A stretch of 64,000 bases of DNA from an uncultured Thermodesulfobacteriota bacterium (GTDB lineage Bacteria > Desulfobacterota > GWC2-55-46 > JADFVP01), in the NCBI GenBank assembly GCA_964472295.1, contig CAYYJQ010000001.1, forward strand, positions 85,313-149,312. Direction: 5' to 3'. Both the position numbers and the translations under genes were made by a program. Positions 7,852-51,490 of this stretch are shown here, piece after piece (the stretch's first letter is position 1; the number at the start of each line of letters is the position of its first letter). Under the pieces are notes generated by a model. The model saw only the letters and a program-made list of their open reading frames with translations, ran no database searches and was not told where the DNA came from.

Positions 7852-7885
7852 GGTAGTATCATCGCCGACATGGTCTTTTTATGGG

Positions 7886-8012
7886 GTAAAATTGCCCCAC
7901 GCGCCGCACCTTGGCCATACATTTATGAGGCAGAGGGCGGATGGTTAAAAAATCGCCCCACGCGCCGCACCTTGGCCGTACATTTGTGATGCACAGGGCG
8001 GTTGGTCAAAAA
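7886..8012. repeat. Two-unit ~61-bp tandem repeat between the cytochrome genes
   Basis: GCCCCACGCGCCGCACCTTGGCCRTACATTTRTGAKGCASAGGGCGGWTGGT at 7894 and 7955. Confidence 0.85.
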
Positions 8013-8070
8013 AACCTCCCGTCCGGCCACGCATCTTCCCTGCTTCTGCCCGCCCCCTTCACTCTCCCCC

Positions 8071-8757: not shown

Positions 8758-8814
8758 GGAACTTTTTCCGGGGCCAGGGGAGAACCGCCGAGACCGCCAT
8801 ATATATTCATATAA

Positions 8815-8963
8815 GGAAAGACTGATTAATTCAGACTTTCCAGCGGCGCATGGACGCGTCGCCATTTTCTATAACTGTAAGTTATTGACAATGAGAAAAA
8901 GAAAAACCGCGCTTTTTCTTTTTCGTCTCTGAATAATTCAGGGATGAATTATTCAGAGGTTCC
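8815..8963 (+). mobile_element. Complete ~150-bp MITE (IS5-like ends), copy 2
   Basis: Imperfect TIRs GGAAAGACTGATTAATTCA / (rc) GGAACCTCTGAATAATTCA; 4-bp target duplication ATAA at 8811-8814 and 8964-8967; no transposase. Confidence 0.85.
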
Positions 8964-13359: not shown

Positions 13360-13379
13360 ATTCTTTATCACCGAGTTCA

Positions 13380-16800: not shown

Positions 16801-16855
16801 TATCTCCTCCTCATCATGATGGAATAAATGCGTCTATTAACTCCTCAACCCGCCC

Positions 16856-22187: not shown

Positions 22188-22244
22188 GCTCTTCGCCTCT
22201 TTTAGATTGGGGAACCCCTGAAAAATCAAGAAGTTCCTTAAGGG

Positions 22245-23384: not shown

Positions 23385-23397
23385 GCAAGCGTATAGG

Positions 23398-24510: not shown

Positions 24511-24542
24511 AATATTCTTTTCCGGCTCAGCACCTTTTATGT

Positions 24543-25955: not shown

Positions 25956-25968
25956 TGCTCCTGCGCCC

Positions 25969-27042: not shown

Positions 27043-27048
27043 CTTCTC

Positions 27049-30008: not shown

Positions 30009-30041
30009 CCACTGTCTCTGGCCATGACCGGGCCTCGCGCC

Positions 30042-32015
30042 TTACTGGAACCAGACCCTCACCACCTTTTCGCCCTTCAGCGGCCTGCCGGGCCTTGGGC
30101 TCTGGCGAACGGCCACGCCGCCGCCTATCATCTCTATCTTAATGGAATCCTCCATGGATACCCTGAGGGCCTTTCTAACGGTAAGGCCCCTGAAGTCAGG
30201 GACATAGCCCTCGCGCACCTTCCTTGTGACGTTCCTTGCCAAGGCCTTTTTAGCGCCCCTTGAGGCATGACGCGCGGACCTGGCCATCAATGGCCTCACC
30301 CCGGCGGAACCTGATGGCGTTACGCCAAGGTAGGAGAGGCTCTTGGAGGCTATCTCCCTAAAGGCCGGAGCCGCAACGTCTCCTCCATAATATCCCTTTT
30401 GAGGCTCGTCAAGGGTGACGGTAATCACAAGTTCCGGGTCCTTTGCCGGGAGGAATCCGAAGAAACTCGATACATAGGCGCCCCTCTTGTAGCCGCCCTT
30501 CTTGAAGTCGGGTTTCTGTGCGGTGCCTGTCTTTCCGGCCACCTCGAAACCAGCGAGCGCCGCCTTCGTGCCCGTGCCTCCGGGCTCCGTGACCCTCACC
30601 ATTAGACGCCTTATGGTCTTTGCTGTCTCTGCTGATATGGCCCTCCTTATGATGGCAGGGTTATTGGACTTCACCACGGACCCGCCACTATCGCGCACCT
30701 CTCTAACTATATAGGGCCTCATGAGAAAACCGCCGTTGGCTATGGCCCCAAGGGCCGAGGCGAGCTGAATGGAAGATACGGAGAGACCCTGTCCAAAGGC
30801 AAGGGTATGGAGCGTGACACCCGACCATTTGTCAGGCGCGGGGAGTACGCCCGGCGTATCACCGGGCAGGTCTATGCCGGTCCTCCTCCCAAAGCCAAAG
30901 CCCCTGAGCGTCCTGTATACCCTCTCCCTGCCCATCTTATCGGCTATCTTAAGGGCCCCGATGTTACTCGAAAACTTGATTATATTTGCTACAGAGAGCC
31001 AGCCGTTCTTCTCGGCGTCATGAAAGACCCTGTCGGCTACCCTGAACTTTCCGTTCTCGCAGTAGAAGATGTCACCAGTCGTGACCACGTTCTCCTCAAG
31101 GGCCCCGGCCACGAGAAAGACCTTAATGAGAGAGCCCGGCTCAAAGGTGTCCGTTACCGCGCGGTTACGCCAGAGGGCCGGTGAGGCGCGGCCAAAGTCA
31201 TTGGGGTCAAAGCCCGGCTGGTTGGCCATGGCAAGGACCTCGCCAGTTGCAGGAGACATTACCACCGCAATGCCGCCCTTTGCCCCGGACTTATCTATGG
31301 CCCTCTTGAGCGCGCTCTCGGTGACATACTGAATGGTCTTGTCAATGGTAAGTTCCACGCTCATGCCCTCAATCGGCACAACGTTGTCCGTGTCACCGTA
31401 GAGAATGAGCCTGCCGCGGGCATCCCTTCCGCCGCTTATCCGGCGGGCCGTGCCCACGAGGAACCTGTTGTACGAGTGCTCTATGCCCTCAAGGCCGTTG
31501 GAGTCCACGCCCGTAAAGCCTATGAGATTGGAGGCAAGGGTGCGGTTGGGGTAATAACGCCTGCTCTCCTTGATTATGCCCACACCCTTGATGGCGGCTA
31601 TCTTCTCGCGGGCCGCTTCGTCAAGGTCTATCTGGCGTTTCAACCAGACAAAACCCCTGCCCCGCCGAATCTTCCTCTCAATGGCCGAGGCGCTCATGGA
31701 CGTAATGGGCGCAAGGGCCCTTGCCACGGCCCTTGGAGACCTTATCTTCGTTGGCTGGGCGTATATGGAATCCACGTCAATGCTTATGGCAAGGGCCTTG
31801 AGGTTCCTGTCGTATATGGCCCCGCGCTTTGACTTAAGGCTCACGGTGCGCACGTGCTGGCGCGACGCCATCTTCCTCAGCGCGTCTCCCTCTATGACCT
31901 GGAGCTGGAACGCGCGCATGAATATCAGGGAAAAGGCGAGGAGAAAGAAGCCGAGCACCACAAAGACCCTTGGCCTTATCCTGTTTTTCTTCTCTTTTTT
32001 TCTCTTCTTTCTCAC
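30042..32015 (-). CDS. ftsI: Penicillin-binding protein FtsI with C-terminal PASTA-like domain
   Basis: RG.IYDRN, EPGSLIK (SxxK), SSN, KTGT; C-terminal VPDFRG...QSP.PG. Confidence 0.96.
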   Translation of the reverse strand: MRKKRKKEKKNRIRPRVFVVLGFFLLAFSLIFMRAFQLQVIEGDALRKMASRQHVRTVSLKSKRGAIYDRNLKALAISIDVDSIYAQPTKIRSPRAVARALAPITSMSASAIERKIRRGRGFVWLKRQIDLDEAAREKIAAIKGVGIIKESRRYYPNRTLASNLIGFTGVDSNGLEGIEHSYNRFLVGTARRISGGRDARGRLILYGDTDNVVPIEGMSVELTIDKTIQYVTESALKRAIDKSGAKGGIAVVMSPATGEVLAMANQPGFDPNDFGRASPALWRNRAVTDTFEPGSLIKVFLVAGALEENVVTTGDIFYCENGKFRVADRVFHDAEKNGWLSVANIIKFSSNIGALKIADKMGRERVYRTLRGFGFGRRTGIDLPGDTPGVLPAPDKWSGVTLHTLAFGQGLSVSSIQLASALGAIANGGFLMRPYIVREVRDSGGSVVKSNNPAIIRRAISAETAKTIRRLMVRVTEPGGTGTKAALAGFEVAGKTGTAQKPDFKKGGYKRGAYVSSFFGFLPAKDPELVITVTLDEPQKGYYGGDVAAPAFREIASKSLSYLGVTPSGSAGVRPLMARSARHASRGAKKALARNVTRKVREGYVPDFRGLTVRKALRVSMEDSIKIEMIGGGVAVRQSPRPGRPLKGEKVVRVWFQ

Positions 32016-32383
32016 CTTGATACCTTTATTATCTGCCCCTCCGAGGGGTGCACAAGGCCCAGTTCAGTCATTGCTATGCGCTCGATTCGCTCAGGGGACT
32101 TGAGCCTCATGAACTCTATCTTGAGACGCCTGTTCTGCTCCATGAGCGTGCTTCTCTCCATGTTGGCCCTTGAGATGTCATATCCCATGCTAACCACCGT
32201 TAGCCTGCACCATATGTAGAGAAAGAGCACGCCTATAACCGCAAGCGAGGCAAGGACCGCCATGGAGACAAACCTTATGTCACGGGGGTTGCGCCTTGCG
32301 CCGGCCCTCGAACGCGCGCCGCGCGCGGCCCCTGACTTTGAGACCGCGCCCCTGCCGATTCTCCTCGTAGTCGCGTGAGACAT
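32012..32383 (-). CDS. ftsL: Cell division protein FtsL
   Basis: TM plus coiled coil, LKSPERIERIA...LGL; between rsmH and ftsI. Confidence 0.9.
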   Translation of the reverse strand: MSHATTRRIGRGAVSKSGAARGARSRAGARRNPRDIRFVSMAVLASLAVIGVLFLYIWCRLTVVSMGYDISRANMERSTLMEQNRRLKIEFMRLKSPERIERIAMTELGLVHPSEGQIIKVSR

Positions 32384-32394
32384 CTCTAAAAAAC

Positions 32395-32512
32395 TCCCTA
32401 TTACTCTCTCTGCCGCGGAGGGCGATTAAAAATTTTTATTCCCCCCTATGTTACGGAGTTGCGATTAAAAATCCTTATTCCCTCCAATGCCACGGAACTG
32501 CGATTAAAAAAT
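32395..32512. repeat. 39-bp degenerate tandem repeat between rsmH and ftsL
   Basis: GCGATTAAAAAT at 32422, 32461 and 32500 with similar intervening sequence; the last copy contains the rsmH stop codon. Confidence 0.85.
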
Positions 32513-33439
32513 CTCAACGGCCCTTAGTCTCGCGCTCCTTGCCCTGGGGTTTTCCTCGACCTCGCCGGAGCCCGGTCTCACCACACGGCGCGTAATGACC
32601 TTTGCCCGGGGTGTCTTTCCACAGACGCAGCGAGGCAGGTCAGGCGGGCACTGGCAGGGAAAGGCCCACTCCCTGAAGGTCTTCTTCACTATCCTGTCTT
32701 CCAGCGAGTGGTAGGATATGACCACCATGCGCCCACCACTTCCAAGAATCTCCAAACCGCCCTGAAGACCCTTCTCAAGGGCATCGAGTTCACTGTTTAC
32801 AAAGATTCTCAGGGCCTGAAAGGTCCTTGTGGCCGGGTGGAGCCTCGCCGAGTGGTACCTCTTGGGGACGGCACCGAAGATTATCCCGGCAAGCTGGCCC
32901 GTGGTCTCTATGGGCCCTTGCTCCCTCGCCCTAACTATGGCCCTCGCTATCCTCATGGAGAACCTCTCCTCTCCAAAACGCCTGATTATCTCCGCGAGTT
33001 CCCCTGCCTCCATGTTATTTACAATGTCTCTTGCCGATACCTTGCCGCGCCTGTCCATCCTCATGTCAAGGGGCGCGTCAAGCCTGAAACTAAAACCCCG
33101 CGAGGCCTCATCGAGCTGATGGGAAGATACGCCAAGGTCAAGAAGCAGACCATCCACCTTACTGTAACCCGCCTCCCTTACGGCGTCCTTTATCCCTGAA
33201 AAATCAGCCCTTACCGTAAAAACCCTGTCTCTGTACCGGGAAAGCGCCCTCCTAGCCTCAGAGATTGCCGCCCCGTCGCGGTCAATCCCGATGAGCACCC
33301 CGTCTGGCCCAGAGGCCTCGAGTATGGCCCCCGCGTGCCCCCCGCCCCCCAATGTGCCATCCACATACACGCCGCCCCGGCGGCACTCAAGGTACTTGAT
33401 AACCTCGCGCACCATGACGGGCCTATGCTCGTAAACCAT
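32504..33439 (-). CDS. rsmH: 16S rRNA m4C1402 methyltransferase
   Basis: H.PV, DGTLGGGGH, DLGVSS.QLD, RGFSF, HPATRTFQALRI, SYHSLEDRIVK, NPRARSA. Confidence 0.98.
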   Translation of the reverse strand: MVYEHRPVMVREVIKYLECRRGGVYVDGTLGGGGHAGAILEASGPDGVLIGIDRDGAAISEARRALSRYRDRVFTVRADFSGIKDAVREAGYSKVDGLLLDLGVSSHQLDEASRGFSFRLDAPLDMRMDRRGKVSARDIVNNMEAGELAEIIRRFGEERFSMRIARAIVRAREQGPIETTGQLAGIIFGAVPKRYHSARLHPATRTFQALRIFVNSELDALEKGLQGGLEILGSGGRMVVISYHSLEDRIVKKTFREWAFPCQCPPDLPRCVCGKTPRAKVITRRVVRPGSGEVEENPRARSARLRAVEIF

Positions 33440-33441
33440 GG

Positions 33442-33876
33442 TCAGAGCCCGAGACGTTCGAGGGTGTTGCCGATCTCTTCCGTGGACACGGCGCCCTCAG
33501 CCCTGTCCCAGGCCTCCTTGGCCCATATCTCTATCTGCCTGTAGGCGCCTATGAGGACAATGTCCTTCTCAAAACCCGCGTAGTCGCGAAGGGCCTGAGG
33601 TATGAGTATGCGGCCAAGCCTGTCTATGACACAGTCCGCGGCGCTTGAATAAAAAAAGCGGAGAAATGCCCGCGTATCCTTCTTGAACTCGGGCAACTCC
33701 GCTATCCTGGCCTCCAGCTTCTCCCACTCCTTGAGAGGATAGGCCACGAGGCAACCGTCATATGTAGTTACAACAAGTTTCGAGTCATAGCGCTCGTTCA
33801 GGGTCTCACGAAGACGCGCAGGTATGCTGAGCCTGCCCTTGGCGTCAATGGTATGCTCGAACCTGCCCCTGAACAT
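33442..33876 (-). CDS. mraZ: Transcriptional regulator MraZ
   Basis: MFRG, DAKGRLSIP, DRLGRILIP, IEIW. Confidence 0.98.
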   Translation of the reverse strand: MFRGRFEHTIDAKGRLSIPARLRETLNERYDSKLVVTTYDGCLVAYPLKEWEKLEARIAELPEFKKDTRAFLRFFYSSAADCVIDRLGRILIPQALRDYAGFEKDIVLIGAYRQIEIWAKEAWDRAEGAVSTEEIGNTLERLGL

Positions 33877-42185: not shown

Positions 42186-43106
42186 TTAAAAGAGGAACTT
42201 TCTCTTTTTCTTCTTCTTATTCTTCTCTTTTTTCTTCTTTTCTTCTTCCAGTTTTTTCAGCCGCTCTTTTTCGGCCTTTTCCTTCTTCACATCCTCACCG
42301 GTAATCCAGTCCGGTACTTTTACCTCCTGTGAGTGGCAACGATAGCAATCCTCAAGGGGGAAGGCCACCTTTCCGTGGCAGGCCCCGCAGTACTCCCCTT
42401 TTATTATCTTCATCATATCCATGCCCAGGTTGCCGCCCTTTTTGGGCTTAAAGCGTCCGGGGTGGCAGGACTTGCAGTCAAGGACCTCGGTATGGGACTT
42501 ATGGGGGAAGAGCACATCTGGCGGGCCCGGTGCAAAGCGCGAGGATGGTATGACAATGTCTTTATCAAGGGCCTTGAGTTTACCTGTACCGTCAACGGAT
42601 GCCACTGGTTTTATCTTTTTATCATGGAGCGCCCTGACCCAGTTTATTTTGTTCCCAAAATCATCTGGGGGCATATCCTTCATTGCGAACTCGAACCTGG
42701 AGTTCTCAGGGACTTCCTTGCCGTAGGAATGACAGCGCAGGCACTTGTCGGCGCCAAAGACGTCCTCGCCGTTGTGACAGGCCCCGCACTTCTTCCCGGT
42801 CTCTATGTCGGCCTGTGTGACAGTGGTCTGGCCGGCCTTCCAGGCAAAGCCAAGGTCTGTGTGGCAGACATTGCATGTATAATACCTTCTGTGCGTCCAG
42901 TGCGTAAAGACCACCGGTGCGACCCCGGCGTCCGCGGCCGTATTGTTCTTCATTACAATGGAGCCGTACCATGAAGGCGGGGCCACCTTGTGATACCCCT
43001 TGCCCGGGGGTGTCCTTACTCCCTGGGCTACCGCAGGCCTCTTCGGCATTACTGCGAAGAAGGCAAAAACAAGGACCAATATGATAAACAAACGCAGGGA
43101 CTTCAC
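42186..43106 (-). CDS. Hexaheme cytochrome with two c7-type triheme domains
   Basis: Signal peptide; F.H..H + CNVCH/CGACH/CLRCH and F.H..H + CKSCH/CGACH/CYRCH; Lys-rich tail. Confidence 0.9.
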   Translation of the reverse strand: MKSLRLFIILVLVFAFFAVMPKRPAVAQGVRTPPGKGYHKVAPPSWYGSIVMKNNTAADAGVAPVVFTHWTHRRYYTCNVCHTDLGFAWKAGQTTVTQADIETGKKCGACHNGEDVFGADKCLRCHSYGKEVPENSRFEFAMKDMPPDDFGNKINWVRALHDKKIKPVASVDGTGKLKALDKDIVIPSSRFAPGPPDVLFPHKSHTEVLDCKSCHPGRFKPKKGGNLGMDMMKIIKGEYCGACHGKVAFPLEDCYRCHSQEVKVPDWITGEDVKKEKAEKERLKKLEEEKKKKEKNKKKKKRKFLF

Positions 43107-43137: not shown

Positions 43138-43551
43138 TCAGTACCCCCTGTGACATGCCGAGCAGAGTTTCAGATAATCCGTCCTCAACATGTTGGGGTA
43201 GCCTGAGCGGTTATGATTGTCATGACAGGTATAACACACCATCTTGCCGTCAAGGCTTAATGGCATGAGCCTTGTTATGTTTATCCCCGGACGCTTGCCT
43301 ATGGGGTGCTTTGCCACGGGGTGATTGCCAAGGTAACCCTCATGACACCTTGTGCATATTGTAACAGTATCGAACTTGAGGTCAGGCACGGCGCTTTTGT
43401 GACAGGATGCGCAGGCCTCCTTGTCTGAATAATCATGGGGGTTTTTCCCTCCTTTGGCCCAGGCCCTTCCCGAGACAAAGGGTCCTGCCGAAAGAGTAAA
43501 GGCAAGGACCATAATAAACGCGACGCCGTATGAGTTTAGCCTCATGAACAT
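43138..43551 (-). CDS. Small tetraheme cytochrome c
   Basis: Signal peptide, NPH, CASCH, CTRCH, CYTCH..H, CSACH; start moved to ATG 43551 (RBS present). Confidence 0.9.
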   Translation of the reverse strand: MFMRLNSYGVAFIMVLAFTLSAGPFVSGRAWAKGGKNPHDYSDKEACASCHKSAVPDLKFDTVTICTRCHEGYLGNHPVAKHPIGKRPGINITRLMPLSLDGKMVCYTCHDNHNRSGYPNMLRTDYLKLCSACHRGY

Positions 43552-43661
43552 GGAAAAGCCCCCCTTAGCCGACGCCACGCCCGGCCCCCTTAAGCGGTCA
43601 AGCGTCGCGGTCCTAACGCAAGTCCTATTCAAGGTAGTATGAAAAATCAGCCCATCTTTGA

Positions 43662-45896
43662 TTAATTGGAGCAGTCGGCAACGGTGTTGCAACTATATGT
43701 TGCCGTGACACCGCTCAATATATTGGTAAAGTTATGCTTGCAGACCCTGTCTGTAAGCGTATTTACTGTCCTGAAGTAGAGCTGCGCCCCTGTAGTCGTT
43801 GTCGCGGGCACATAGGACTCGATACAGGCCCCGTTCATGAGCCTGAACCCAAGGGGGCTCGAACCAGGCACAGAGCCCGCCGGTGCGTCGCTACCGTGAA
43901 TCCCCTTCATCATATTGTTGACCGTATCGTAGCTTCCGCCATGGCAGGTAAGGCAGAGGTTGCCAAATCGGTTGCTGTCATTACCAAGACCGACTCCAGT
44001 CTGATAAAAAGGCGAGTTAACGCCAAGACCATCCACGGGGTGCGGGACCCTTGAGAAGTTGGCGTTGGGGCCCACGTAGCCCTCGTCACCGTAGACATCG
44101 CGCCTGTGGCAATTATAGCAGAAGTTCTGGATAGAGCCCACGCCCCGCTCGTTGTTCCTGAGGACCCACTTGTTGTTGGAGGCATGAGGCCCCTGAGGGT
44201 CAGAGGCCGAGTCCGGGCCGTGACAATCCGTACAGGTCATGGTGGACTCATGGGTTACGTTGAAAAACCCTGTCCTGGTTCCTACTCCGGAAAAGTCTAT
44301 GTAGGTGAAGGTATTTGTCAGCCCCAGTCCATTGGCCGGCCAGTTGGGGTTGGCCGTTGGCAGGGGCCTGTTCTTTCCCAAGCCGAATACAGGGTGAAAG
44401 CCCTCGTTATTGATATTAAAGTCTTCCGTGGGGTCTGACTCGCGCACAATACTTCCGTCGGCATTGCCCGATGGAACGTCTGGAGGCATGATACCATAGG
44501 CGTAATAGGAATGACACTTAAGGCAGAGATAGCCCTCGAGATTATCACCGCCCGGCGTGGTAGAGGTAAAATCAACTACCTGGTAGATGAGGGCCGGACC
44601 GGATAGCGGCCACGTTGTTGGCTTAACTCCCCATGAACCAAGGAGATTGGGGGCTATGATATTGCCGTTAAGGCCTCCTATGGTGTGGTTGCCGGCCTCG
44701 GCCCCATGAGGGTTGTGGCAATCCACGCACTCGGCGTGTCTGTTGGTTCCGAGGTTTGTCGCGGTCTCGCGTACAGGATCGCCAGAGAAGCCCCTTGAAG
44801 GTATATGGGCCCCGCTTACACCCTTTACATCATGCTTTGAGAGCCTTATGAACATGGAGTCAATATCTTTTGAGGCTACGTTACCGTTGTGGCAGTTAAG
44901 ACACGTCCATTCCTCGTCCTCAATGAGGCCGCTAAGGGGGTTCGTGCCCTTCAAGAGGCTTTTTCCGGCCATGCCTCCGTGGCCGCGGTGACAGGCAAGA
45001 CAGCTCTGTATCTGTGGCGTGTCATCTGTAAAGCCCGCGCTGCCCATGTCAAGGTGATAGGGGTTCTCGCCGGACTGGTTCCATGTGGCCACGGAATCCC
45101 TGTGAACAGAGGGGTTGGTGTTCCAGTACCTCTTGTCATGACAGGCCTCGCAGAGGACGCCGTTCTCAAGGCTCGTCACCATGAAGGACGGGTATATGGT
45201 ACCGTGCGGGTCGTGACAGCTCGTGCACTGGACCATGTTGTTCTTGTCGAGTTTTACCTCGGCGGGAAGCGACGTTGATGGTTTAATCTCCACGTTTGCC
45301 GGATAGGAGAGGGCGTAGTCAAAAGAAAGGGGGTGGTCATCCCGGAGGTCCGTGCCTATGAAGGCCGTAGATGCGGAGGTAAGCTTTCCGGCTGTCACGC
45401 CAGGGCCCGTAACAGGCAACGTGGTAGGCCCTGTTACTCCTGTCAGGTTCAGAATAGAGCCTATGGCAATGGTTCCGTCATGACAGGAAAGACAGAGCTT
45501 CGACGACCCCGTGGGCTGTCCCATGGTGGCCACCACTGTATCGCTCTGATATATGTTGTATGTCGCCCCGGAGTCGGCCCTGTTCCATAGTGGCCCGGAG
45601 GGGTTGGCGTTATGAGGCGCGTGACAGAAGACACAGATCTTTGTCGTGGTTACGGTCTTCACGGCAGCAGATGAGAATACGCTGAAGTTGTGTTTTGTCG
45701 CGGCCACAGTGGCAAGGGCTCTTGGCGCCCCAAGGCCCAATAATGAGAGAGCGAAGACCAGGAGAACCGCAGACCTGACCATAACACGCGCCCTTGAACG
45801 CGCCCCCTTGAATCCCAAAGCAGGCAACACGCAGAGAAGGGGTGCCACTTTTGCCCGGCTTTTCATGAAATCGCTCACTCTCAAGTCAACCTCCAA
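43662..45896 (-). CDS. Secreted 11-heme cytochrome c with an OmcE-like N-terminal tetraheme module
   Basis: 11 CxxCH motifs; signal peptide ending in ALA (true start may be ATG 45866 or 45782); T/S/N/G-rich. Confidence 0.9.
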   Translation of the reverse strand: MEVDLRVSDFMKSRAKVAPLLCVLPALGFKGARSRARVMVRSAVLLVFALSLLGLGAPRALATVAATKHNFSVFSSAAVKTVTTTKICVFCHAPHNANPSGPLWNRADSGATYNIYQSDTVVATMGQPTGSSKLCLSCHDGTIAIGSILNLTGVTGPTTLPVTGPGVTAGKLTSASTAFIGTDLRDDHPLSFDYALSYPANVEIKPSTSLPAEVKLDKNNMVQCTSCHDPHGTIYPSFMVTSLENGVLCEACHDKRYWNTNPSVHRDSVATWNQSGENPYHLDMGSAGFTDDTPQIQSCLACHRGHGGMAGKSLLKGTNPLSGLIEDEEWTCLNCHNGNVASKDIDSMFIRLSKHDVKGVSGAHIPSRGFSGDPVRETATNLGTNRHAECVDCHNPHGAEAGNHTIGGLNGNIIAPNLLGSWGVKPTTWPLSGPALIYQVVDFTSTTPGGDNLEGYLCLKCHSYYAYGIMPPDVPSGNADGSIVRESDPTEDFNINNEGFHPVFGLGKNRPLPTANPNWPANGLGLTNTFTYIDFSGVGTRTGFFNVTHESTMTCTDCHGPDSASDPQGPHASNNKWVLRNNERGVGSIQNFCYNCHRRDVYGDEGYVGPNANFSRVPHPVDGLGVNSPFYQTGVGLGNDSNRFGNLCLTCHGGSYDTVNNMMKGIHGSDAPAGSVPGSSPLGFRLMNGACIESYVPATTTTGAQLYFRTVNTLTDRVCKHNFTNILSGVTATYSCNTVADCSN

Positions 45897-45975
45897 TCAA
45901 GGACCGCCTGCCGCCTGCCTGATAAAAAGGCCGGGGCCCTTTACAAGCCTCCTGCCCACTGCCTGGCTAAAGGTT

Positions 45976-46132
45976 CCGGGGCTGTTTCATGCCCACCGCA
46001 CCCTGCTTTCATAATAGTACCGGGGCAACTTCATGCCCCCTGCACCCTGCTTTCACAATGGTGCCGGGGCTGTTTCATACCCACCGCGCCCTGCTTTCAC
46101 AATGGTGCCGGGACAACTTCATGCCCCCTGCC
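45976..46132. repeat. 44-bp tandem repeat, 3.6 units in ABAB order
   Basis: CCGGG starts at 45976, 46020, 46064 and 46108; units alternate GCTGTTTCAT and RCAACTTCAT. Confidence 0.9.
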
Positions 46133-46144
46133 ACTTACGAGGGT

Positions 46145-47281
46145 CTAACCATGCTGACGGGCATCACCTGTGCCGCCGCCAAGATACTCGAAGACCTCTA
46201 TCCTCCTGTTATAGGGGTCGGCCACGTAAATATTGTCAGCCCTGTCTATGAAGACTCCGCCGGGCATCCAGAACATTCCTGGCCCAGCGCCGAGTTTGCC
46301 GAAGTTAAGGAGGAAGGCGCCCTTTCTCGAAAAAATCTGAACAGTATCGAATATTGCGTCGGCCACATATATATTGCCCTCAGAGTCCACTGCCACACCC
46401 TTTGGCCTTCCGAAGTCTCCGCTTCCGTCACCGTGCTGGCCGAAACTCGTCTCATATCTGCCGTTCATGTCAAATATCTGCACCCTGTAGTTCATGGAGT
46501 CAGTGACGTATATATCTCCCCTTCCGTCCACGAAGATGTCTGTCGGGTAGTTGAACTGCCCGGGGTTAGAGCCTATGCCCCCGAAGGTCTTTATGAGCTC
46601 ACCGTCAAGGTTGAATATCATCACCTTGTGCTCGCCTGTATCAACGACATAAAGCCGTTTTCTCGGAACATCAAGGGCGATGCCCGTGGGCCGGGCGCCG
46701 CCATCAAGGGAACGTATCAACCGGCCCTTGGGATTGAAAATATAGATCTTCCTCGCCGTGGAATCGCTTACGTATATATTATTCTTACTATCCGTGGCCA
46801 CGCCTATGGGAGAAGAGAGGGAGTCCTTGCCCGCCCGGTCTATATAGGTGTACTTCTTTTTCTTCCTGTCGTAGATGTGAACCCGCTTGTAAGCGGTGTC
46901 GGCCACGATAATCCTGCCCATGGTGTCGACAGTTATGCCGTAGGGCTTTACCATGGACCTCTTGTCCCCGCCAAGGAGGACATCCACGAGCTTTTTGAAG
47001 AGACCTTTTTTTATTCCAACATCTTCGGGCCTTGCCAGCGAGAGGTCATAGGACACACGCGCCGGGGCAGGTGGTGATGGCCAGATAAGCGGCTTGTGCT
47101 TAAAGTCCTTAGACTGCTGGGAGGTGACATCAGGTGAGCCGCAGCCAAGGGCCGCGAAGAGGAAGACAAAGAGGAGGAGACCAAGGCAAAAGATGCCCCT
47201 TGCCCTGCCCTGCTCCTTACCAGGCAGGCGGCCATGTACTTCACAAGTGTCCCTGGTCATTATCTTGAAGGTCATAGCCAC
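46145..47281 (-). CDS. NHL-repeat beta-propeller lipoprotein
   Basis: Lipobox ALGC, WPSPP..AR, repeated P.G/D-I.VD..G.IYV.D..N.R.Q.F. Confidence 0.92.
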   Translation of the reverse strand: MAMTFKIMTRDTCEVHGRLPGKEQGRARGIFCLGLLLFVFLFAALGCGSPDVTSQQSKDFKHKPLIWPSPPAPARVSYDLSLARPEDVGIKKGLFKKLVDVLLGGDKRSMVKPYGITVDTMGRIIVADTAYKRVHIYDRKKKKYTYIDRAGKDSLSSPIGVATDSKNNIYVSDSTARKIYIFNPKGRLIRSLDGGARPTGIALDVPRKRLYVVDTGEHKVMIFNLDGELIKTFGGIGSNPGQFNYPTDIFVDGRGDIYVTDSMNYRVQIFDMNGRYETSFGQHGDGSGDFGRPKGVAVDSEGNIYVADAIFDTVQIFSRKGAFLLNFGKLGAGPGMFWMPGGVFIDRADNIYVADPYNRRIEVFEYLGGGTGDARQHG

Positions 47282-47300: not shown

Positions 47301-47936
47301 CTATTTTCTGTGACAATACTGACAAATATCGAGCCCCTCGCTCCTCAAGAGGACCTCCTGGTCCGCCCCCCAGTTCGCCCTGCCATAGAGGAGCCCCCTC
47401 TCGTGGGGGTTGTGGCACGTCGCGCAAAAAATTTTCTTGGTCGCCGGGTCAAGCGGTATGAGGACAGGGACCTCTTTTTTCTCGAGCCTCATGTTAAGAT
47501 AAAGCCTTCTGGAGAGTGTGGTCAGGTGGCTTGGGGCCACAAAACCGCTCATCCGCGGCCCTACTCCCTCGACGCCAGGGTGTTTCTTTACCACATGGCA
47601 TATGTAGCAATTCTTGTTTATGTCTTTTTTGAAGCGGAGTTCCCAGTTCACGGGTGATTTGAGATTCTCTGTATCAGGCATCTTCTTGTGGCAGATAAGG
47701 CACTTTGACCAGAGTATCTCGCCCTCGTCGTTAATCTGCTCATGGGGATTCATGATGGATTTGCGCACGGCAAACCTGTCATAGGAGAGTTTTGGAGGGG
47801 CCTTTTTTTCCTTGGCATGAAGCGGTACGGCGCCCGCGAAAAAAAATAGAGAGAGGACGGCGAGACCCTTTAGCAACGCAAAGCGCGATTCTCGTATCAT
47901 AATGACTCTATCCTTGATCATGGACGCGGTCATCAA
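47301..47936 (-). CDS. Tetraheme cytochrome c
   Basis: Signal peptide, NPH, CLICH, CYICH, CATCHNPH, CQYCH. Confidence 0.9.
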   Translation of the reverse strand: MMTASMIKDRVIMIRESRFALLKGLAVLSLFFFAGAVPLHAKEKKAPPKLSYDRFAVRKSIMNPHEQINDEGEILWSKCLICHKKMPDTENLKSPVNWELRFKKDINKNCYICHVVKKHPGVEGVGPRMSGFVAPSHLTTLSRRLYLNMRLEKKEVPVLIPLDPATKKIFCATCHNPHERGLLYGRANWGADQEVLLRSEGLDICQYCHRK

Positions 47937-47993: not shown

Positions 47994-49145
47994 TCAGCGC
48001 CCAAAGGCGTAGACATAACCGTCCTTTGAGCCCACAAAGAGCCTGCCTCCTGATATGGCCGGCGACGAGTGTATGCCCCCGCCGGTGGCATAACTCCAGC
48101 TTACCTCGCCAAGGATAATATCTATGGCGTAGAGGCGTCCATCCTCAGAGCCCACGAAGAGAAAGCCATTGGATGTTACGGCAGGGGTTGAATTAAGAGG
48201 CGCGGGGAGTTTGTAATCAGCCAGTTCCCTTCCACGCTGCATGCCATAGGCCTTTATATGGCCGTCCGTGAATGCCACGTAGATCTTCTTGCCCGCCACC
48301 ACGGGAGAGGCATAGGCAAGGGCCGCACCCGTCTTTTTCCTGAGGACGATCTTTCCGCTCTTTACATCAAAGCCCTGAAGCATCCTGCTTCCAAGGACAA
48401 TATAAACCCTGCCGTCTTTTATAGTAGGACTCGAGTATATTGCCGAAAATGAGATAAATCCCCAGTTCCTGCCTCCGCTCTTTCCTGCCTGCGAGTAGAC
48501 AAGACCATTCTTCCCGGCAAAAATTACGTTGCCGTCATAATAGACTGGAGAAGAGTATATGCCGCTGTACCTGTCATTGGCGAACATCTTCATTCGCCAC
48601 TCCCTCTTGCCAGTACTGGCGTTAAGGGCGTAGATGTGAAGGTCCGAGGAGCCGAAGAAGACCCTGCCGTCGCCGACTACGGGAGACGTCAGGATGGGCC
48701 CTTCTGTGGTAAAACTCCAGAGGAGTTTACCGTCAGAGGCCTTGAGGCAGTAGAACTTTCCGTCCTTTGAGCCAAAGTATACCCTGCCGTCGGCAACGGC
48801 CGGGATAGAGAGTATCTCGCCGCCAGTGGCAAAGCTCCAGAGTTTCTTTCCACTGGCCTCGTCAAGGGCGTAGAGTTTCTTGTCATAAGAGGCGACGAAG
48901 ACCACACCTCCCGATACCACGGGTGAGGAGTAGACCGGGCCATTGGTCTTGAACCTCCAGAGGACCTTTAGCGGCGGCCTCGGGGCCCTGGCGGCAAAGG
49001 AGGTATGCGAGCGGTCCTTCATGAACATGGGCCAATCGGCAAGAACCCCTGCCGGGAAAAGGGCGAGGAGAAATGAGCAGGCGATAAGGGATGAAAGGAA
49101 CTTGGTTATATAAGCGACGCGGACTCTCGTTGATCTCTGTCTCAT
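47994..49145 (-). CDS. PQQ-like (BamB-type) beta-propeller secreted protein
   Basis: Signal peptide, DWPMF, repeated W.F.T.G.I.SSP.V..G.V..GS.D..LYAL. Confidence 0.9.
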   Translation of the reverse strand: MRQRSTRVRVAYITKFLSSLIACSFLLALFPAGVLADWPMFMKDRSHTSFAARAPRPPLKVLWRFKTNGPVYSSPVVSGGVVFVASYDKKLYALDEASGKKLWSFATGGEILSIPAVADGRVYFGSKDGKFYCLKASDGKLLWSFTTEGPILTSPVVGDGRVFFGSSDLHIYALNASTGKREWRMKMFANDRYSGIYSSPVYYDGNVIFAGKNGLVYSQAGKSGGRNWGFISFSAIYSSPTIKDGRVYIVLGSRMLQGFDVKSGKIVLRKKTGAALAYASPVVAGKKIYVAFTDGHIKAYGMQRGRELADYKLPAPLNSTPAVTSNGFLFVGSEDGRLYAIDIILGEVSWSYATGGGIHSSPAISGGRLFVGSKDGYVYAFGR

Positions 49146-49151
49146 AAAGTA

Positions 49152-49757
49152 TTATACCCTGAATTTTGATAACTCATCTATGGCTTCATCGCTTGCGATG
49201 GCCATCACCGTAAGCCTCTGCCTGAGGGTATCCACCTTCAATGCGCTTCCAGGGGCCTCCATGGAACGGCTTATCTCCCCCATGCTTTGCTCAATGCCTC
49301 GGGAGAGGTCTTTTATGACGGCGAATCTAGCGCCGAAGACTGCCATTGCCATGTTAAAGGACTCCCGCACATCAGAGAGGCCCCTTGCGCCGGACTCAAC
49401 ACGCGCGGTGAAGTCGCCGTCCCCGGCCTTTTTCATGGCGCTCAGGTAAGGCGCGAGACCTGCCTCGAGACGCCTTACGAGAAAAAACGCCAGGACAAGG
49501 CCTCCAAGGGCGATAAAGAAGGCGCTCGCTATGGAGAGCTTCCATATTACAGGCCAGATTATATCCAAGGTGGAATTGGCCTGCAAGTGAATTTTATATA
49601 GCCTCGCATCGAGCGTCCTGTCAATGAGAAAATAGGATGCCGTAAAGTCCAGGAGGAGTCCCAGCCCGACTATTACTGCAAGGCCTATAACAAAACCTCC
49701 CTGAAGCCCTCTGGAGATAAAATACCTTCTCCTTCTCATTCCCGGGAATAGACCCAT
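49152..49757 (-). CDS. Small 2TM-HAMP membrane protein
   Basis: RRRRYFI N-terminus, two TMs, HAMP-like GDFT.RV...FN.AM, short coiled coil, no output domain. Confidence 0.75.
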   Translation of the reverse strand: MGLFPGMRRRRYFISRGLQGGFVIGLAVIVGLGLLLDFTASYFLIDRTLDARLYKIHLQANSTLDIIWPVIWKLSIASAFFIALGGLVLAFFLVRRLEAGLAPYLSAMKKAGDGDFTARVESGARGLSDVRESFNMAMAVFGARFAVIKDLSRGIEQSMGEISRSMEAPGSALKVDTLRQRLTVMAIASDEAIDELSKFRV

Positions 49758-49818: not shown

Positions 49819-50886
49819 TTACTTGACATGACAGGCAAGGCAGAGGTTGCTCCCGTAATTATTCATGACCAGTTCCGCGTGCCCCCTCGCGTAGGGGCTG
49901 TGACAGGTACCGCAACCTACGCGCCCGCCAAAGAGCTTTATCTGAGGAGGAAGGTCCTTAAGGGGCCTGTAGGCCCCATGATACTTTCTCCTTGCCTCAA
50001 AATAGGATACGCCCACAGGGTGAGTGAGGCCCGTGGTGTTGCTGTGCTGGCTCCTGAAGAGATCAAAGTTCGAGACCGTGGACTCGGAGCCAAAGGTAGC
50101 GTCATGGCAACTCATGCACTTTATGCTCACCTCGTCAAGGCGCACCGCACCTCTGTTTCCCCGGCCATAGGCGATCTTTACCACGCTGCCCATATGGGCG
50201 CTCACTCCCGATACGCTGTGCATGTTCTCATCAAGGCCGCTGTGGCAGAGCACGCAGAACCCCTGTCCTCTGGCCCTTGTCCGCAGATGAGCGGAACCAA
50301 ACCCTGTCTTATGCGCACGGTGGCAGGTTACGCAGGTTACCATGCCGCGCCAGTCAAGGGGGAGATACCCAGGTATGTCCCTCGTGGGCCTTACATCAAC
50401 GGGGTGCGTGAGGCCGTCCTCCTGGTTATGACACTTGCCGCAGAGCACAGTAACGTCTTTACGGAGCGTTGGTCTTCTCTCCCCTGGCGACGGAATCTTT
50501 ATGTGGCAGCCAAGGCACTTGCCCCTGAAGTCATGGTAACTCCCCCCCCTGCCGCCCCCCCGGGGTATCGAGGCCCGCCTGACCTGCCCAAGGGGCTCCA
50601 CGTACATATCCAGGGGCGCGTCGCCGCCCCGCCCCTCCCGCCCCCCGCGCGCCCCATCAGCACCTTCCGGCCCCTGCGCCCACTGCGTCTCTTCGGCTTC
50701 CTCGCCTGTAATCACCCACCTGCCCCATTGACGAAGCCTCTCCCACCGCCCCCCGGAGGCAAAAGAAGAGGAAGAGGCGATAATGACGATAATAAGGAAA
50801 GAGAGGAGGAGGCATATCTTCTTCACCTGTTTCTTTTCACTCCAGGTCAAGGATAAGCGCAGGGCCCGGCCAGGTCCTTCACTCAC
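49819..50886 (-). CDS. Heptaheme cytochrome c
   Basis: Signal/TM segment, Gly/Arg-rich linker, CLGCH, CGKCH, CVTCH, CVLCH, CMSCH, CGTCH, CLACH. Confidence 0.9.
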   Translation of the reverse strand: MSEGPGRALRLSLTWSEKKQVKKICLLLSFLIIVIIASSSSFASGGRWERLRQWGRWVITGEEAEETQWAQGPEGADGARGGREGRGGDAPLDMYVEPLGQVRRASIPRGGGRGGSYHDFRGKCLGCHIKIPSPGERRPTLRKDVTVLCGKCHNQEDGLTHPVDVRPTRDIPGYLPLDWRGMVTCVTCHRAHKTGFGSAHLRTRARGQGFCVLCHSGLDENMHSVSGVSAHMGSVVKIAYGRGNRGAVRLDEVSIKCMSCHDATFGSESTVSNFDLFRSQHSNTTGLTHPVGVSYFEARRKYHGAYRPLKDLPPQIKLFGGRVGCGTCHSPYARGHAELVMNNYGSNLCLACHVK

Positions 50887-51490
50887 CCGTGGTCTTAAGG
50901 TCCCGCACCCGTGTCCTGATACGCTCGGCGCGCCTCTTGAGTTCCTTCAGCCTTGCCCTTATCTCCTCTTCGTTGGCCCCGGCACTGCCCATGGCCGAGA
51001 CCTTTTGCGAGAGCTCACTGCAGGTCTCTCTCAGAAAGGCGAAGTCCCTCGCCGAGTCCGAGACAAGCCCGGCGAGCCTGCCGGCCATATTGTTCTTCTC
51101 CGTGGCCAGCATGGCGAACTGGTCCTTCTCCCTGAAAAATGTCTTGCCCGTGATGTCACCCGAGGCAAGACGCTCGAGGTCGCGGGCGAGCCTGAAAAGA
51201 GGACCCGCTATCTTGTGAGAGAAGAAAATGGAGACAAGGGCCGTAAAGACCACGGTGAGGACAAGTATGACCACGGAATATACCGAGGCCAGCATGAGGG
51301 AGAGGATATTTACCTTGAGGTTGTAGATGGTGTAGATGGCCTCGCCGTAGGAACGCCCAAGATCCCGGCCTGCGGCAAGATAAAGAAAGAGGGCAAAGGC
51401 CGCAAATCCGGCCAGTGTGAGGAGGCAGTACTTTAGACCAAACCACATCTCGTAACCACGCTCAAGGAGCGCTTCTCTCTTCATGGGCAT
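50879..51490 (-). CDS. Small 2TM-HAMP membrane protein (paralogue of 49152-49757)
   Basis: Two TMs, SHKIAGPLFRL...GDIT...FREKDQ, coiled coil. Confidence 0.8.
   Translation of the reverse strand: MPMKREALLERGYEMWFGLKYCLLTLAGFAAFALFLYLAAGRDLGRSYGEAIYTIYNLKVNILSLMLASVYSVVILVLTVVFTALVSIFFSHKIAGPLFRLARDLERLASGDITGKTFFREKDQFAMLATEKNNMAGRLAGLVSDSARDFAFLRETCSELSQKVSAMGSAGANEEEIRARLKELKRRAERIRTRVRDLKTTGE

Follow-up and report, generated by a model that had tools for sequence, protein, structure and literature searches.

An OmcE-homologous tetraheme module joined to seven further hemes in a predicted UetJ-family cytochrome of an uncultured Thermodesulfobacteriota bacterium

Introduction

OmcE-family nanowire cytochromes are defined by four CxxCH motifs and four further heme-ligating histidines at conserved positions (Petersen et al. 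2026), and OmcE takes one heme ligand from the adjacent subunit (Petersen et al. 2026 and other papers). Petersen et al. (2026) also discuss five-heme OmcE-like proteins, for which a nanowire family of their own has been put forward as new. According to that work, OmcE operons come without a tip candidate, and the sole anchor candidate lies outside the omcE cluster. It is still debated how such a nanowire starts, how it ends and how the cell is connected to it, and the protein described here may bear on this.

The uetABCDEFGHIJ cluster of 'Ca. Tenderia electrophaga' includes a gene for an undecaheme cytochrome, UetJ, which is highly expressed on biocathodes and was proposed to be an extracellular heme wire or a transmembrane conduit, with polymers mentioned as a possibility (Eddie et al. 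2022 preprint). Uet genes are also present in Gallionella (Hoover et al. 2023). Our literature search found no paper stating homology between Uet proteins and OmcE, and the portions of the Uet papers covered by it do not mention OmcE. A figure legend in a 2026 preprint on peat lists "OmcE-like" multiheme cytochromes with 8–13 hemes, which may bear on such a link.

Here we describe an undecaheme cytochrome gene, referred to as LONG, in a 64,000-nucleotide stretch of DNA (the window, analysed as a whole) from an uncultured Thermodesulfobacteriota bacterium, and compare it and its surroundings with these systems.

Results

Gene and predicted protein

In the ORF listing of the window, a minus-strand open frame spans 43662..45896. 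The LONG coding sequence within it occupies 43662..45782, with the ATG at 45782 as its likely start, and encodes 706 amino acids. The ATG is followed by a Sec-type signal peptide, MVRSAVLLVFALSLLGLGAPRALA, and the predicted mature N terminus is TVAATKHNFS. Base 45710, near which the initial annotation had placed the mature N terminus, is the first of codon 25 and coincides with this predicted start.

43662..45782, minus strand: LONG, undecaheme c-type cytochrome assigned to the UetJ family (stop codon 43662-43664; 11 CxxCH motifs invariant in 77/77 homologues)
45711..45782, minus strand: signal peptide of LONG, residues 1-24 (ALA cleavage read by eye from the sequence; homologue alignments start at residues 3-25)
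45132..45710, minus strand: OmcE-homologous tetraheme module, residues 25-217, hemes 1-4 with His31, His57, His150 and His193 (alignment to 7tfs_A, profile and VIA fold match)
43665..45131, minus strand: heptaheme extension, residues 218-706, hemes 5-11 with 10 invariant non-motif His (model pLDDT 85.7; best fold match MtrA at Z 7.5, a value common for unrelated models)
43665..43865, minus strand: C-terminal tail, residues 640-706, two covarying Cys pairs and a degenerate CX3CH remnant at C681 (homologue alignments)

The eleven heme-binding motifs are CVFCH, CLSCH, CTSCH, CEACH, CLACH, CLNCH, CVDCH, CLKCH, CTDCH, CYNCH and CLTCH. Exactly eleven are found in each of 77 LONG homologues, and the alignment of these 77 members contains 14 invariant non-motif histidines for the eleven hemes. 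Four cysteines lie outside the motifs (C653, C681, C698 and C704), with K-H directly after C681; the seven CxxCH motifs beyond the first four and the four additional C-terminal cysteines, CKH included, are present as first described. Homologues number in the thousands, and the gene is no one-off. Pfam and NCBIfam searches returned generic CxxCH families only, with the DmsE and GSU2203 decaheme models far under their cut-offs, and a protein Atlas search with LONG gave generic multiheme clusters only. Judged from its sequence, LONG is a multiheme cytochrome built of two modules and belongs to the UetJ (undecaheme) family; that it is secreted is read from the signal peptide.

The N-terminal module is homologous to the whole OmcE subunit

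The initial annotation had likened the N-terminal tetraheme module to OmcE, motif by motif. This likeness is confirmed: LONG residues 3-217 align with residues 2-232 of the OmcE chain 7tfs_A (E 9.6e-21), which is the whole filament subunit, and LONG matches 9yuq_N, the D. soudanensis OmcE, with E 1.8e-20. A profile built from the 77 homologues scores 2.9e-37 against 7tfs_A and 2.5e-32 against 9yuq_N, and the next PDB chain follows at 0.011. The match is far beyond chance. The OmcE motifs named in the initial annotation do occur in the solved chain 7tfs_A, in which ntkhdlss, icvfchtphna, plwnr, cmschdg, lgtdlsndhp, cgschkvhd and lclgchkk face the corresponding motifs of LONG. All four CxxCH motifs and the four non-motif histidines of the module (H31, H57, H150 and H193) align with OmcE and are invariant in 77/77 homologues.

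At the level of structure, VIA gave Z 5.7 to 7tfs_A over residues 130-215 of the LONG model, and a Foldseek search with the full model returned 7TFS only. AF2 without hemes failed to fold module 1 (pLDDT 31-57). Module 1 is 40-49% identical to stand-alone homologues of about 220 aa from other phyla, compared with 34-38% to the short paralogues of its own genome. We take module 1, on this alignment evidence, to be a genuine OmcE homologue comprising a full tetraheme unit.

The heptaheme extension and the C-terminal tail

In an hhalign comparison, hemes 1-3 of LONG match hemes 5-7, trailing His included, with a probability of 95-96%; the extension thus starts like a next subunit. The model of the C-terminal module superimposes on MtrA with Z 7.5 and an rmsd of 3.8 A over 181 aligned residues, 28% of which are identical, and the full LONG model with Z 7.2 and 4.5 A over 221 residues, both Z values lying in the range (7-7.5) that the fold-comparison tool calls common for unrelated models. 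Foldseek with the C-terminal module alone gave no match at E <= 0.001. Every protein that the extension matched by fold is an electron-transfer multiheme cytochrome.

The heptaheme module is also autonomous, being found in other proteins that have no OmcE module. In some of these it forms the C terminus of a protein whose N-terminal part has few or no heme motifs, and several carry Pro/Thr-rich stretches which, read by eye, resembled the linkers of surface proteins. Stand-alone and split C-terminal modules keep the histidine corresponding to His227, which weakens an earlier candidate assignment of this residue as a "ninth histidine" completing module 1; His227 may instead serve a heme of module 2.

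In the C-terminal tail, C653 and C681 are both present in 75/77 homologues, and C698 and C704 covary in 77/77, with both present in 61, both absent in 16 and neither ever found singly. The four cysteines are therefore likely to form two disulfides, as the initial annotation had offered as one option, and the conservation pattern supports this. Such covarying pairs are neutral as to whether LONG stays in the periplasm. The other option, a twelfth heme at CKH, is unsupported. Position H683 is variable (N 27, K 12, Y 11 and F 5 of 77), and although C681 lines up with the Cys that opens a CX3CH motif at the C terminus of a sister subfamily, the second Cys and the His of this motif are missing in LONG. 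That twelfth motif lies a few residues from the chain end in 11/13 sequences of the sister subfamily; a CX3CH in the last 120 residues occurs in 0/77 members of the LONG subfamily.

The operon around LONG

The following features surround the gene.

42186..43106, minus strand: hexaheme cytochrome with two c7-type triheme domains and a Lys-rich tail (TIGR04257 nanowire_3heme, 127.5 bits, cut-off 40)
43138..43554, minus strand: small tetraheme cytochrome, 138 aa, just downstream of LONG (ORF and motif reading, related loci)
45972..46126, no strand: 44-nt tandem repeat, 3.5 copies, inside the 363 nt that separate the NHL gene from LONG (sequence)
46145..47281, minus strand: NHL-repeat six-bladed beta-propeller, directly upstream of LONG (NHL 3.4e-34; LGC lipobox read by eye)
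47301..47936, minus strand: tetraheme cytochrome, 211 aa (ORF and motif reading, related loci)
47994..49145, minus strand: PQQ/BamB-like beta-propeller, 383 aa (PF13570 1.9e-65; conserved in 6/6 related loci)
49152..49757, minus strand: 201-aa protein with a membrane-bound look and no family match (profile searches, related loci)
49819..50886, minus strand: heptaheme cytochrome ending in CLACHVK (weak OmcE match only, E 0.0087)
50879..51490, minus strand: 203-aa membrane protein with a weak HAMP-like stretch, opening the conserved operon (profile searches, related loci)

The adjacency of the NHL gene and LONG recurs at 19/20 loci. The LONG operon of this genome contains no barrel, porin or secretion gene. 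An OmcE-like assignment of the upstream heptaheme cytochrome (49819..50886) had E 0.0087 as its only basis and was dropped.

Short OmcE-like genes in this genome and its relatives

Besides the one LONG gene, this genome encodes three short OmcE-like cytochromes, all of which stop two residues past the last heme motif. The short-form cluster lies about 60 kb from the LONG operon, as a separate cluster (at about 57-67 kb of G000:C1), and holds a tetraheme OmcE-like gene, a PPIase gene, a barrel-like ORF (668 aa) and another NHL gene; a five-heme OmcE-like paralogue of 377 aa is found on contig C35. A search of the genome found no DsrA above cut-off, no RuBisCO and one heme-copper oxidase gene.

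More generally, short forms stop two residues (three in one case) past the fourth heme motif, where LONG has 486 more. The chain end CH-x-K is shared by 50/50 short-form homologues and is also that of OmcE and the D. soudanensis OmcE. LONG occurs at one locus each in 24/40 related genomes and 23 of those 24 also hold one to five short forms, a co-occurrence counted among relatives and hence not independent evidence. Of 13 loci retrieved from other families in the phylum, 12 hold a short form together with LONG, 12 have an NHL gene immediately upstream of LONG, and 11 contain a mutually similar ORF of 644-794 aa, this last being barrel-like as read from composition and an aromatic C terminus only. 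Simple ORF picking missed small or high-GC genes at loci L022, L026, L030 and L032; L030, L032 and L034 were rechecked by tblastn. By BLAST (1e-3) and HMM, neither the 668-aa ORF of this genome nor the 748-aa ORF of a Geobacteraceae-like omcE cluster showed similarity to the barrel-like family of the other clusters.

Two Geobacteraceae-like genomes carry LONG in a split 4+7 form, with a tetraheme OmcE-like gene followed by a seven-CxxCH gene. The product of the latter has its own signal peptide, a C-terminal CX3CH motif and a His that precedes its first CxxCH by 10-11 residues.

Model of a complex between a short subunit and LONG

We modelled residues 24-329 of a short paralogue together with LONG residues 25-240 and 4 hemes, in one orientation. 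The ipSAE values were 0.74, 0.73 and 0.72, with 0.00 for the best of 3 controls; the pass mark that was applied is reached by 116/157 solved complexes and 2/215 mismatched pairs. The runs agreed in at least 83% of contacts, and partner pLDDT was at least 78. In the predicted interface, residues 317-329, 200-203 and 231-243 of the short subunit meet LONG residues 25-38 and 45-61, which brings the N-terminal arm and heme-1 face of LONG onto the short subunit at its C-terminal, heme-4 end. This pass may echo memory of the solved OmcE filaments, and speaks for likeness rather than binding.

Gene order links LONG to UetJ

A gammaproteobacterial homologue of LONG (E 2e-55), encoded in a metagenome-assembled genome, keeps all 11 CxxCH motifs. 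Of the 14 invariant His it retains 13, with Met in place of the other. The order of its cluster is tetraheme OmcE-like, PPIase, 666-aa barrel-like, c7, c7, small ORF, c7, NHL, NHL, undecaheme and CcsA-like. By gene type, 9/10 positions match the published uetABCDEFGHIJ order, with the LONG homologue in the place of UetJ; at the UetF position there is a 139-aa ORF without a cupredoxin match. LONG thus appears to be a member of an already named, little-studied family, that of UetJ, its link to the Tenderia protein running through the gene order of the gammaproteobacterial cluster.

Discussion

What LONG may do

Our leading reading, held tentatively, is that LONG is a subunit of an OmcE/UetA-type wire that does not repeat but serves as its terminus or as an adaptor. 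The short OmcE/UetA-type tetraheme subunits, whose genes lie elsewhere in the genome, would have LONG as their one specialised partner. The N-terminal arm of LONG, around His31, and its heme-1 face would dock on a short subunit at the latter's C-terminal, heme-4 end, in the way OmcE subunits bind one another, and the heme-4 end of LONG itself would be permanently taken by the fused seven-heme module. LONG would then terminate or anchor the wire and relay electrons between the wire and a further partner, candidates for which are the surface of a mineral or an electrode, a conduit in the outer membrane and the c7-type periplasmic cytochromes of the operon. The data show the OmcE homology of module 1, the family membership, the gene contexts and the conservation of the motifs; the docking, the filament-end position, the extracellular location and the direction of electron flow are all steps that we infer. 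A role as cap, anchor or terminal subunit is plausible because one LONG stands beside one to five short forms in 23/24 genomes with LONG, because in other lineages the LONG cluster also includes a short form, a barrel-like gene and NHL propellers, because split 4+7 forms exist, and because the docking model places the N-terminal face of LONG on the C-terminal end of the short subunit. The homology to the entire OmcE subunit, the UetJ family membership, the CH-x-K chain end past which LONG continues, and the likeness of hemes 1-3 to hemes 5-7 also speak for this reading. Against it stand the barrel-less LONG operon of this genome, its distance of about 60 kb from the short-form cluster, and the closer likeness of module 1 to stand-alone homologues from other phyla than to the short paralogues.

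It is also possible, if rather unlikely, that LONG is a stand-alone, non-polymerizing wire of eleven hemes that exchanges electrons by collision or in a stable complex. It might act outside the cell as a terminal reductase or oxidase, or be threaded through an outer-membrane barrel in the manner of MtrA. Such a function comes close to what was proposed for UetJ (Eddie et al. 2022 preprint) and agrees with an operon that in this order is self-contained and includes c7-type periplasmic cytochromes. The heptaheme module occurs without an OmcE module and so works without one. The extension's fold matches electron-transfer multiheme cytochromes solely, and MtrA best, but at Z values common for unrelated models, and the extension, with about 64 residues per heme and beta-rich decorations, looks bulkier than MtrA. 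A wire acting alone also leaves unexplained why the OmcE unit, N-terminal His included, is complete and invariant, and why LONG has an NHL propeller of its own as the short forms do.

The initial annotation had considered an extended filament subunit, and in that form LONG would repeat head to tail in a thick nanowire with 11 hemes per subunit. We regard this as improbable. The complete and invariant OmcE unit with His31 would fit such a polymer, polymers were named as a possibility by Eddie et al. (2022 preprint), and the C-terminal CX3CH of the sister subfamily (11/13) could supply an acceptor heme for a neighbour's His. In LONG, however, this site is degenerate (CX3CH in 0/77) and a disulfide-bearing tail stands in its place; the 14 invariant non-motif His for 11 hemes would make a ligand in trans unnecessary; and short forms end just past the fourth motif where LONG carries 486 more residues. 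The single copy of LONG beside several short forms and the existence of the split 4+7 arrangement likewise argue against a repeating subunit. A soluble electron-storage or relay cytochrome that never leaves the periplasm is slightly less probable still, as the lack of a barrel or secretion gene in the operon here and the neighbouring c7-type TIGR04257 domains are offset by the clustering of the gene with a barrel-like gene in other lineages and by heptaheme modules on proteins resembling surface proteins.

The reading of LONG as a terminal or adaptor subunit can be carried further, in a form that is speculative and, taken as a whole, unlikely. The Uet systems of the electroautotrophic Tenderiales, the iron-oxidising Gallionella and these Thermodesulfobacteriota might be OmcE-type nanowire machines built like chaperone-usher pili. 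The UetA-like protein would polymerize, and UetJ/LONG would be the one-per-filament end subunit, with its OmcE module in the filament and its seven-heme module on a conduit or mineral; each NHL propeller would chaperone one OmcE-type module, and the large barrel would be the usher. If true, this would answer what starts, ends or anchors an OmcE wire, a question left by Petersen et al. (2026). A full OmcE unit with seven additional hemes is in any case a common protein, often clustered with short OmcE-like and barrel-like genes, and a link between Uet and OmcE would extend OmcE-type wires to electron-uptake and iron-oxidising bacteria.

Comparison with known systems

With OmcE (7TFS, Geobacter sulfurreducens; 9YUQ, Desulfuromonas soudanensis), LONG shares homology over the whole subunit, the N-terminal TKH, an adjacent beta-propeller gene and, in the model with the short paralogue, a predicted head-to-tail interface. 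OmcE stops two residues past the fourth heme motif, whereas LONG adds 486 residues and seven hemes; and whereas OmcE borrows a ligand from its neighbour, LONG has a surplus of three invariant His. The canonical omcE cluster, as present in a Geobacteraceae-like genome, comprises ccsB, 10-heme and 8-heme cytochrome genes, the OmcE orthologue, a 748-aa barrel-like ORF and glycosyltransferases, and has no BLAST-detectable accessory genes in common with the LONG operon except short cytochrome stretches. The five-heme family resembles LONG in having an OmcE-like core and extra CxxCH, but its members keep the length and C-terminal end of OmcE and carry the extra heme inside the chain, whereas LONG appends its module after that terminus.

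The fold closest to that of the LONG extension belongs to MtrA (PDB 6R2Q chain A), a decaheme wire housed in the MtrB porin, and this middling match suggests a linear heme wire. By contrast with MtrA, LONG has about twice the residues per heme, extra beta-rich parts and no significant sequence match, and there is no porin gene in the LONG operon here.

Like UetJ, LONG has eleven CxxCH motifs, a signal peptide and no specific domain family, and in both loci the cytochrome gene directly follows an NHL-repeat gene, with c7-type triheme cytochromes nearby. The tetraheme cytochrome, PPIase and large barrel-like protein of the Uet system are also encoded in this genome, but elsewhere, so that the Uet-type genes form two clusters about 60 kb apart, unlike those of Tenderia. 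The LONG operon has one NHL and one PQQ-type propeller in place of the two NHL genes of Uet, and has no cupredoxin that we could see. Beyond the Uet set it encodes one 7-heme and two 4-heme cytochromes as well as two small membrane proteins. The hosts differ as well, an uncultured Thermodesulfobacteriota bacterium here and a gammaproteobacterial electroautotroph in the case of Tenderia.

Results

LONG joins an OmcE-homologous module to a heptaheme extension

Within the open minus-strand frame at 43662..45896, an ATG at 45782 starts a coding sequence for 706 aa; the protein, here called LONG, begins with a Sec-type signal peptide. Its predicted mature N terminus, TVAATKHNFS, begins at 45710, the position assigned in the initial annotation. 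LONG has 11 CxxCH motifs and four additional C-terminal Cys (C653, C681 in a CKH, C698, and C704). In a phmmer search of all PDB chains it matched OmcE of Geobacter sulfurreducens (7tfs_A, E 9.6e-21, query 3-217 on chain 2-232) and of Desulfuromonas soudanensis (9yuq_N, E 1.8e-20), and a 77-homologue profile gave 2.9e-37 and 2.5e-32, respectively, with the next PDB chain at 0.011. The motif-by-motif likeness of the N-terminal module to OmcE proposed in the initial annotation is borne out: every motif it named is visible in the printed 7tfs_A alignment. Residues 220-706 had no sequence match among PDB chains, and searches of LONG against Pfam and NCBIfam returned generic multiheme families only.

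A word-indexed search with LONG found 5526 proteins at E ≤ 0.001 (8000 candidates scored), and an exhaustive search covering 1.84 billion representatives returned 4799 at E ≤ 1e-3, of which 2962 reached ≤ 1e-10 and 310 reached ≤ 1e-30. About 100 full-length relatives from the word-indexed search, 45-87% identical, are from metagenome-assembled genomes (MAGs) of uncultured Thermodesulfobacteriota or "Deltaproteobacteria". Across 77 aligned full-length members the 11 CxxCH motifs are invariant, with none more or fewer per protein, as are 14 non-motif His (31, 57, 150, 193, 227, 268, 317, 326, 349, 359, 463, 533, 581, and 629).

For the additional Cys, either a twelfth heme site or disulfides had been proposed. 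Of 13 long forms from other families, 11 carry a C-terminal CX3CH, with whose first Cys C681 of LONG aligns. Because LONG lacks the motif's second Cys and its His, and 0/77 close relatives have CX3CH in their last 120 residues, CKH is, judged by sequence, a remnant position and a non-working heme site. Nor does H683 support a twelfth heme, as this position varies among the 77 members (N 27, K 12, Y 11, F 5). The disulfide option fared better: since C653 and C681 are present together in 75/77 members, and C698 and C704 occur as a pair in 61, are both missing in 16, and are never single, the four Cys look like two disulfides by covariation.

Starting near residue 250, the remainder of LONG also recurs as the C terminus of P0146, P0211, P0223, P0234, P0170, and P0132, proteins whose N-terminal parts have few or zero heme motifs. 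The heptaheme module stands by itself in these proteins, several of which contain Pro/Thr-rich stretches, by eye resembling surface-protein linkers, or repeated domains, features reminiscent of surface proteins of other phyla. In hhalign, hemes 1-3 of the N-terminal module aligned with hemes 5-7 of the extension (probability 95-96%, E 1e-8 to 2.5e-9) including the trailing His (57~268, 150~317, 193~359), and a second, weaker alignment placed hemes 1-4 on hemes 7-10. As CxxCH motifs raise such scores artificially, we consider these alignments suggestive of an internal repeat.

AlphaFold2 modeled LONG with a mean pLDDT of 73.5 (31-57 across residues 20-150, 80-94 across 370-700) and the extension alone with pLDDT 85.7 and pTM 0.87. 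For the full protein, Foldseek matched 7TFS only (E 1.4e-4), and VIA, over about 48,000 chains, gave MtrA (Z 7.2, rmsd 4.5, 221 aligned), 7tfs_A (Z 5.7), and OcwA (Z 2.7). For the extension, Foldseek gave zero matches at E ≤ 0.001, and the sole four chains at Z ≥ 2 in the same VIA set were MtrA (Z 7.5, rmsd 3.8, 181 aligned), OmcS (4.4), OmhA (3.0), and OmcE (3.0). The extension thus appears, according to its model, to be a multiheme module of the wire type, with no close relative among the solved structures searched.

Genomic context of LONG and its short paralogues

LONG lies within a minus-strand run of nine genes.

Features of the window (genes 1-9 in transcription order)
7486-8865: two small c-type cytochromes with cbb3-subunit-III-type domains
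10771-15179: two neighbouring large radical-SAM proteins, both Radical_SAM_N2, one also DUF2344; adjoins an RNase E/G gene
15610-33876, minus: complete dcw cluster (mraZ, mraW, mur genes, ftsW, ftsQ, ftsA, ftsZ)
Gene 1, minus: small membrane protein, weak HAMP-like stretch
Gene 2, 49819-50886, minus: 7-heme cytochrome
Gene 3, minus: second small membrane protein
Gene 4, minus: PQQ/BamB-like propeller
Gene 5, minus: 4-heme cytochrome
Gene 6, minus: NHL propeller
45972-46126: 44-nt unit x3.5 (80% matches), within the 363 nt that separate genes 6 and 7
Gene 7, 43662-45782, minus: LONG
Gene 8, minus: 4-heme cytochrome
Gene 9, 42186-43106, minus: hexaheme protein, two c7-type triheme domains (TIGR04257)

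Genes 4 (PQQ propeller) through 9 (c7 protein) form a core that was found in 6/6 loci from related genomes, the ORF picker having missed one small cytochrome in each of two; the three genes upstream were kept in 4/6. No barrel gene is present in this operon. With its ...CLACHVK terminus the 7-heme cytochrome resembles the OmcE-type short forms, a likeness shared by its homologues from other clusters; the cytochrome itself matches OmcE at E 0.0087 only. The hexaheme protein has a very Lys-rich C-terminal tail (KKEKAEKERLKKLEEEKKKKEKNKKKKKRKFLF). The 44-nt repeat is a possible regulatory or REP-like element.

The genome (2.2 Mb, 91 contigs, marker completeness 100%) encodes three short OmcE-like proteins of 329 aa (4 hemes), 344 aa (4 hemes), and 377 aa (5 hemes), all terminating in CH-x-K, as do 50/50 aligned short-form homologues. 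The 329-aa protein matches 7tfs_A at E 2e-16. Its gene is flanked by NHL propeller and SurA-like PPIase genes; downstream are genes for a monoheme cytochrome and for a pair of FGE-sulfatase-domain proteins (2 CxxCH in one of them), a 668-aa ORF without a Pfam match, barrel-like by eye and ending in ...FVRIF, and a TPR gene. Together these genes make up a second cluster outside the window (contig C1, about 57000-70000), with the 344-aa gene close by. Elsewhere the genome encodes a single heme-copper oxidase (subunit I, contig C28); DsrA did not score above its cut-off, and RuBisCO was not found. Public runs that contain this DNA carry the labels microbial mat and hydrothermal vent metagenome and come from two studies, of which one may be the source of the DNA; none of the runs listed is an RNA run.

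LONG occurs in 24/40 related genomes, at a single locus each (fragmented at contig ends in two), and 23 of the 24 also carry 1-5 short forms; one related genome, 81% complete, has short forms without LONG. Among 401 genomes spread evenly over the phylum, 45 have the module (E ≤ 1e-12), 32 with a long form (open frame ≥ 431 aa) and 13 with short forms only. At 13 long-form loci from other families, the fetched locus includes a short form in 12 and a mutually similar 644-794-aa barrel-like ORF in 11, and an NHL gene is immediately 5' of LONG in 12. This adjacency holds at 19/20 loci when six order-level loci and the window are included, these locus and genome counts coming from kin genomes and so overstating independence. 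The typical order is short form, NHL, 5-heme cytochrome, barrel-like ORF, sometimes a HAMP/7-heme/membrane trio, NHL, and LONG.

In each of two Geobacteraceae-like genomes examined, LONG is two genes, placed after an NHL gene. The first protein (253-277 aa) is tetraheme and OmcE-like; the second (369-412 aa) has its own signal peptide, seven CxxCH, a His 10-11 residues ahead of the first, and a C-terminal CYLTCH or CYLSCH. One of these genomes also encodes an evident OmcE orthologue (E 6.1e-62 to 7tfs_A), whose canonical cluster comprises ccsB, 10-heme, 8-heme, OmcE, a 748-aa barrel-like ORF, and glycosyltransferases. At the two split loci (L040 and L042), Lon protease and glycosyltransferase genes lie upstream, with a SurA-like gene in L040 too, and a 3-heme cytochrome follows, with T2SS-F, T2SS-E ATPase, and PilM-like genes after it.

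Discussion

At the OmcE interface, one heme depends on a His supplied by the adjoining subunit, and how the wire is anchored or tipped has been raised as a question (Petersen et al. 2026, section 12). LONG retains the N-terminal His31 arm, and its fused module sits where every short form stops. We modeled one complex, made up of LONG (25-240), the short paralogue (24-329), and four hemes. The ipSAE was 0.74, 0.73, and 0.72, with the best of three controls at 0.00, runs sharing ≥ 83% of contacts, and partner pLDDT ≥ 78; the ipSAE mark is reached in 116/157 solved complexes and 2/215 mismatched pairs, counts that are approximate here given the custom alignments and riding ligand. Contacts involve the C-terminal heme-4 region of the short protein (317-329, 200-203, 231-243) and the arm (25-38) and heme-1 motif (45-61) of LONG. 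The modeled geometry resembles the head-to-tail packing of OmcE, with LONG downstream, the orientation that would leave its extension free. Since OmcE filaments are already solved, this result may reflect memory of them.

We therefore tentatively favor, at a little under even chances, LONG as a terminal or adaptor subunit, whose His31 arm and heme-1 face would dock on the heme-4 end of a short subunit. That LONG is instead a stand-alone wire or conduit appears less likely, although it deserves consideration. A homopolymer is improbable, and a periplasmic relay slightly more so.

The uetABCDEFGHIJ genes were named in 'Ca. Tenderia electrophaga', where the preprint describes UetA as a tetraheme cytochrome, UetB as a PPIase, UetC as a 28-strand barrel, UetD, UetE, and UetG as c7 triheme cytochromes, UetF as a cupredoxin, UetH and UetI as NHL proteins, and UetJ as an undecaheme cytochrome, followed by ccsAB (Eddie et al. 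2022). Uet genes are also reported in six Gallionella genomes (Hoover et al. 2023). The term "OmcE" does not occur in the Uet preprint, and "Uet", "Tenderia", and "undecaheme" are all absent from Petersen et al. 2026; we found no Uet-OmcE link in the literature searched. A figure legend of a 2026 peat preprint mentions 8-13-heme "OmcE-like" cytochromes.

A gammaproteobacterial MAG (G428) has a LONG homologue (E 2e-55) in a cluster of tetraheme, PPIase, 666-aa barrel-like ORF, c7, c7, 139-aa ORF, c7, NHL, NHL, undecaheme, and CcsA-like genes. No cupredoxin match was found for the 139-aa ORF in the UetF position. The 787-aa undecaheme protein keeps 11/11 motifs and 13/14 invariant His; its H317 to Met replacement is consistent with one heme having exchanged an axial His ligand for Met. 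The tetraheme protein matches 7tfs_A at E 2.2e-20. This gene order is that published for uetA-J, and because the G428 homologues occupy it, LONG belongs, by homology and gene order, to the UetJ family, and proteins of the UetA type are homologous to OmcE. An interaction or polymerization of UetA and UetJ was itself suggested as possible in the Uet preprint (Eddie et al. 2022).
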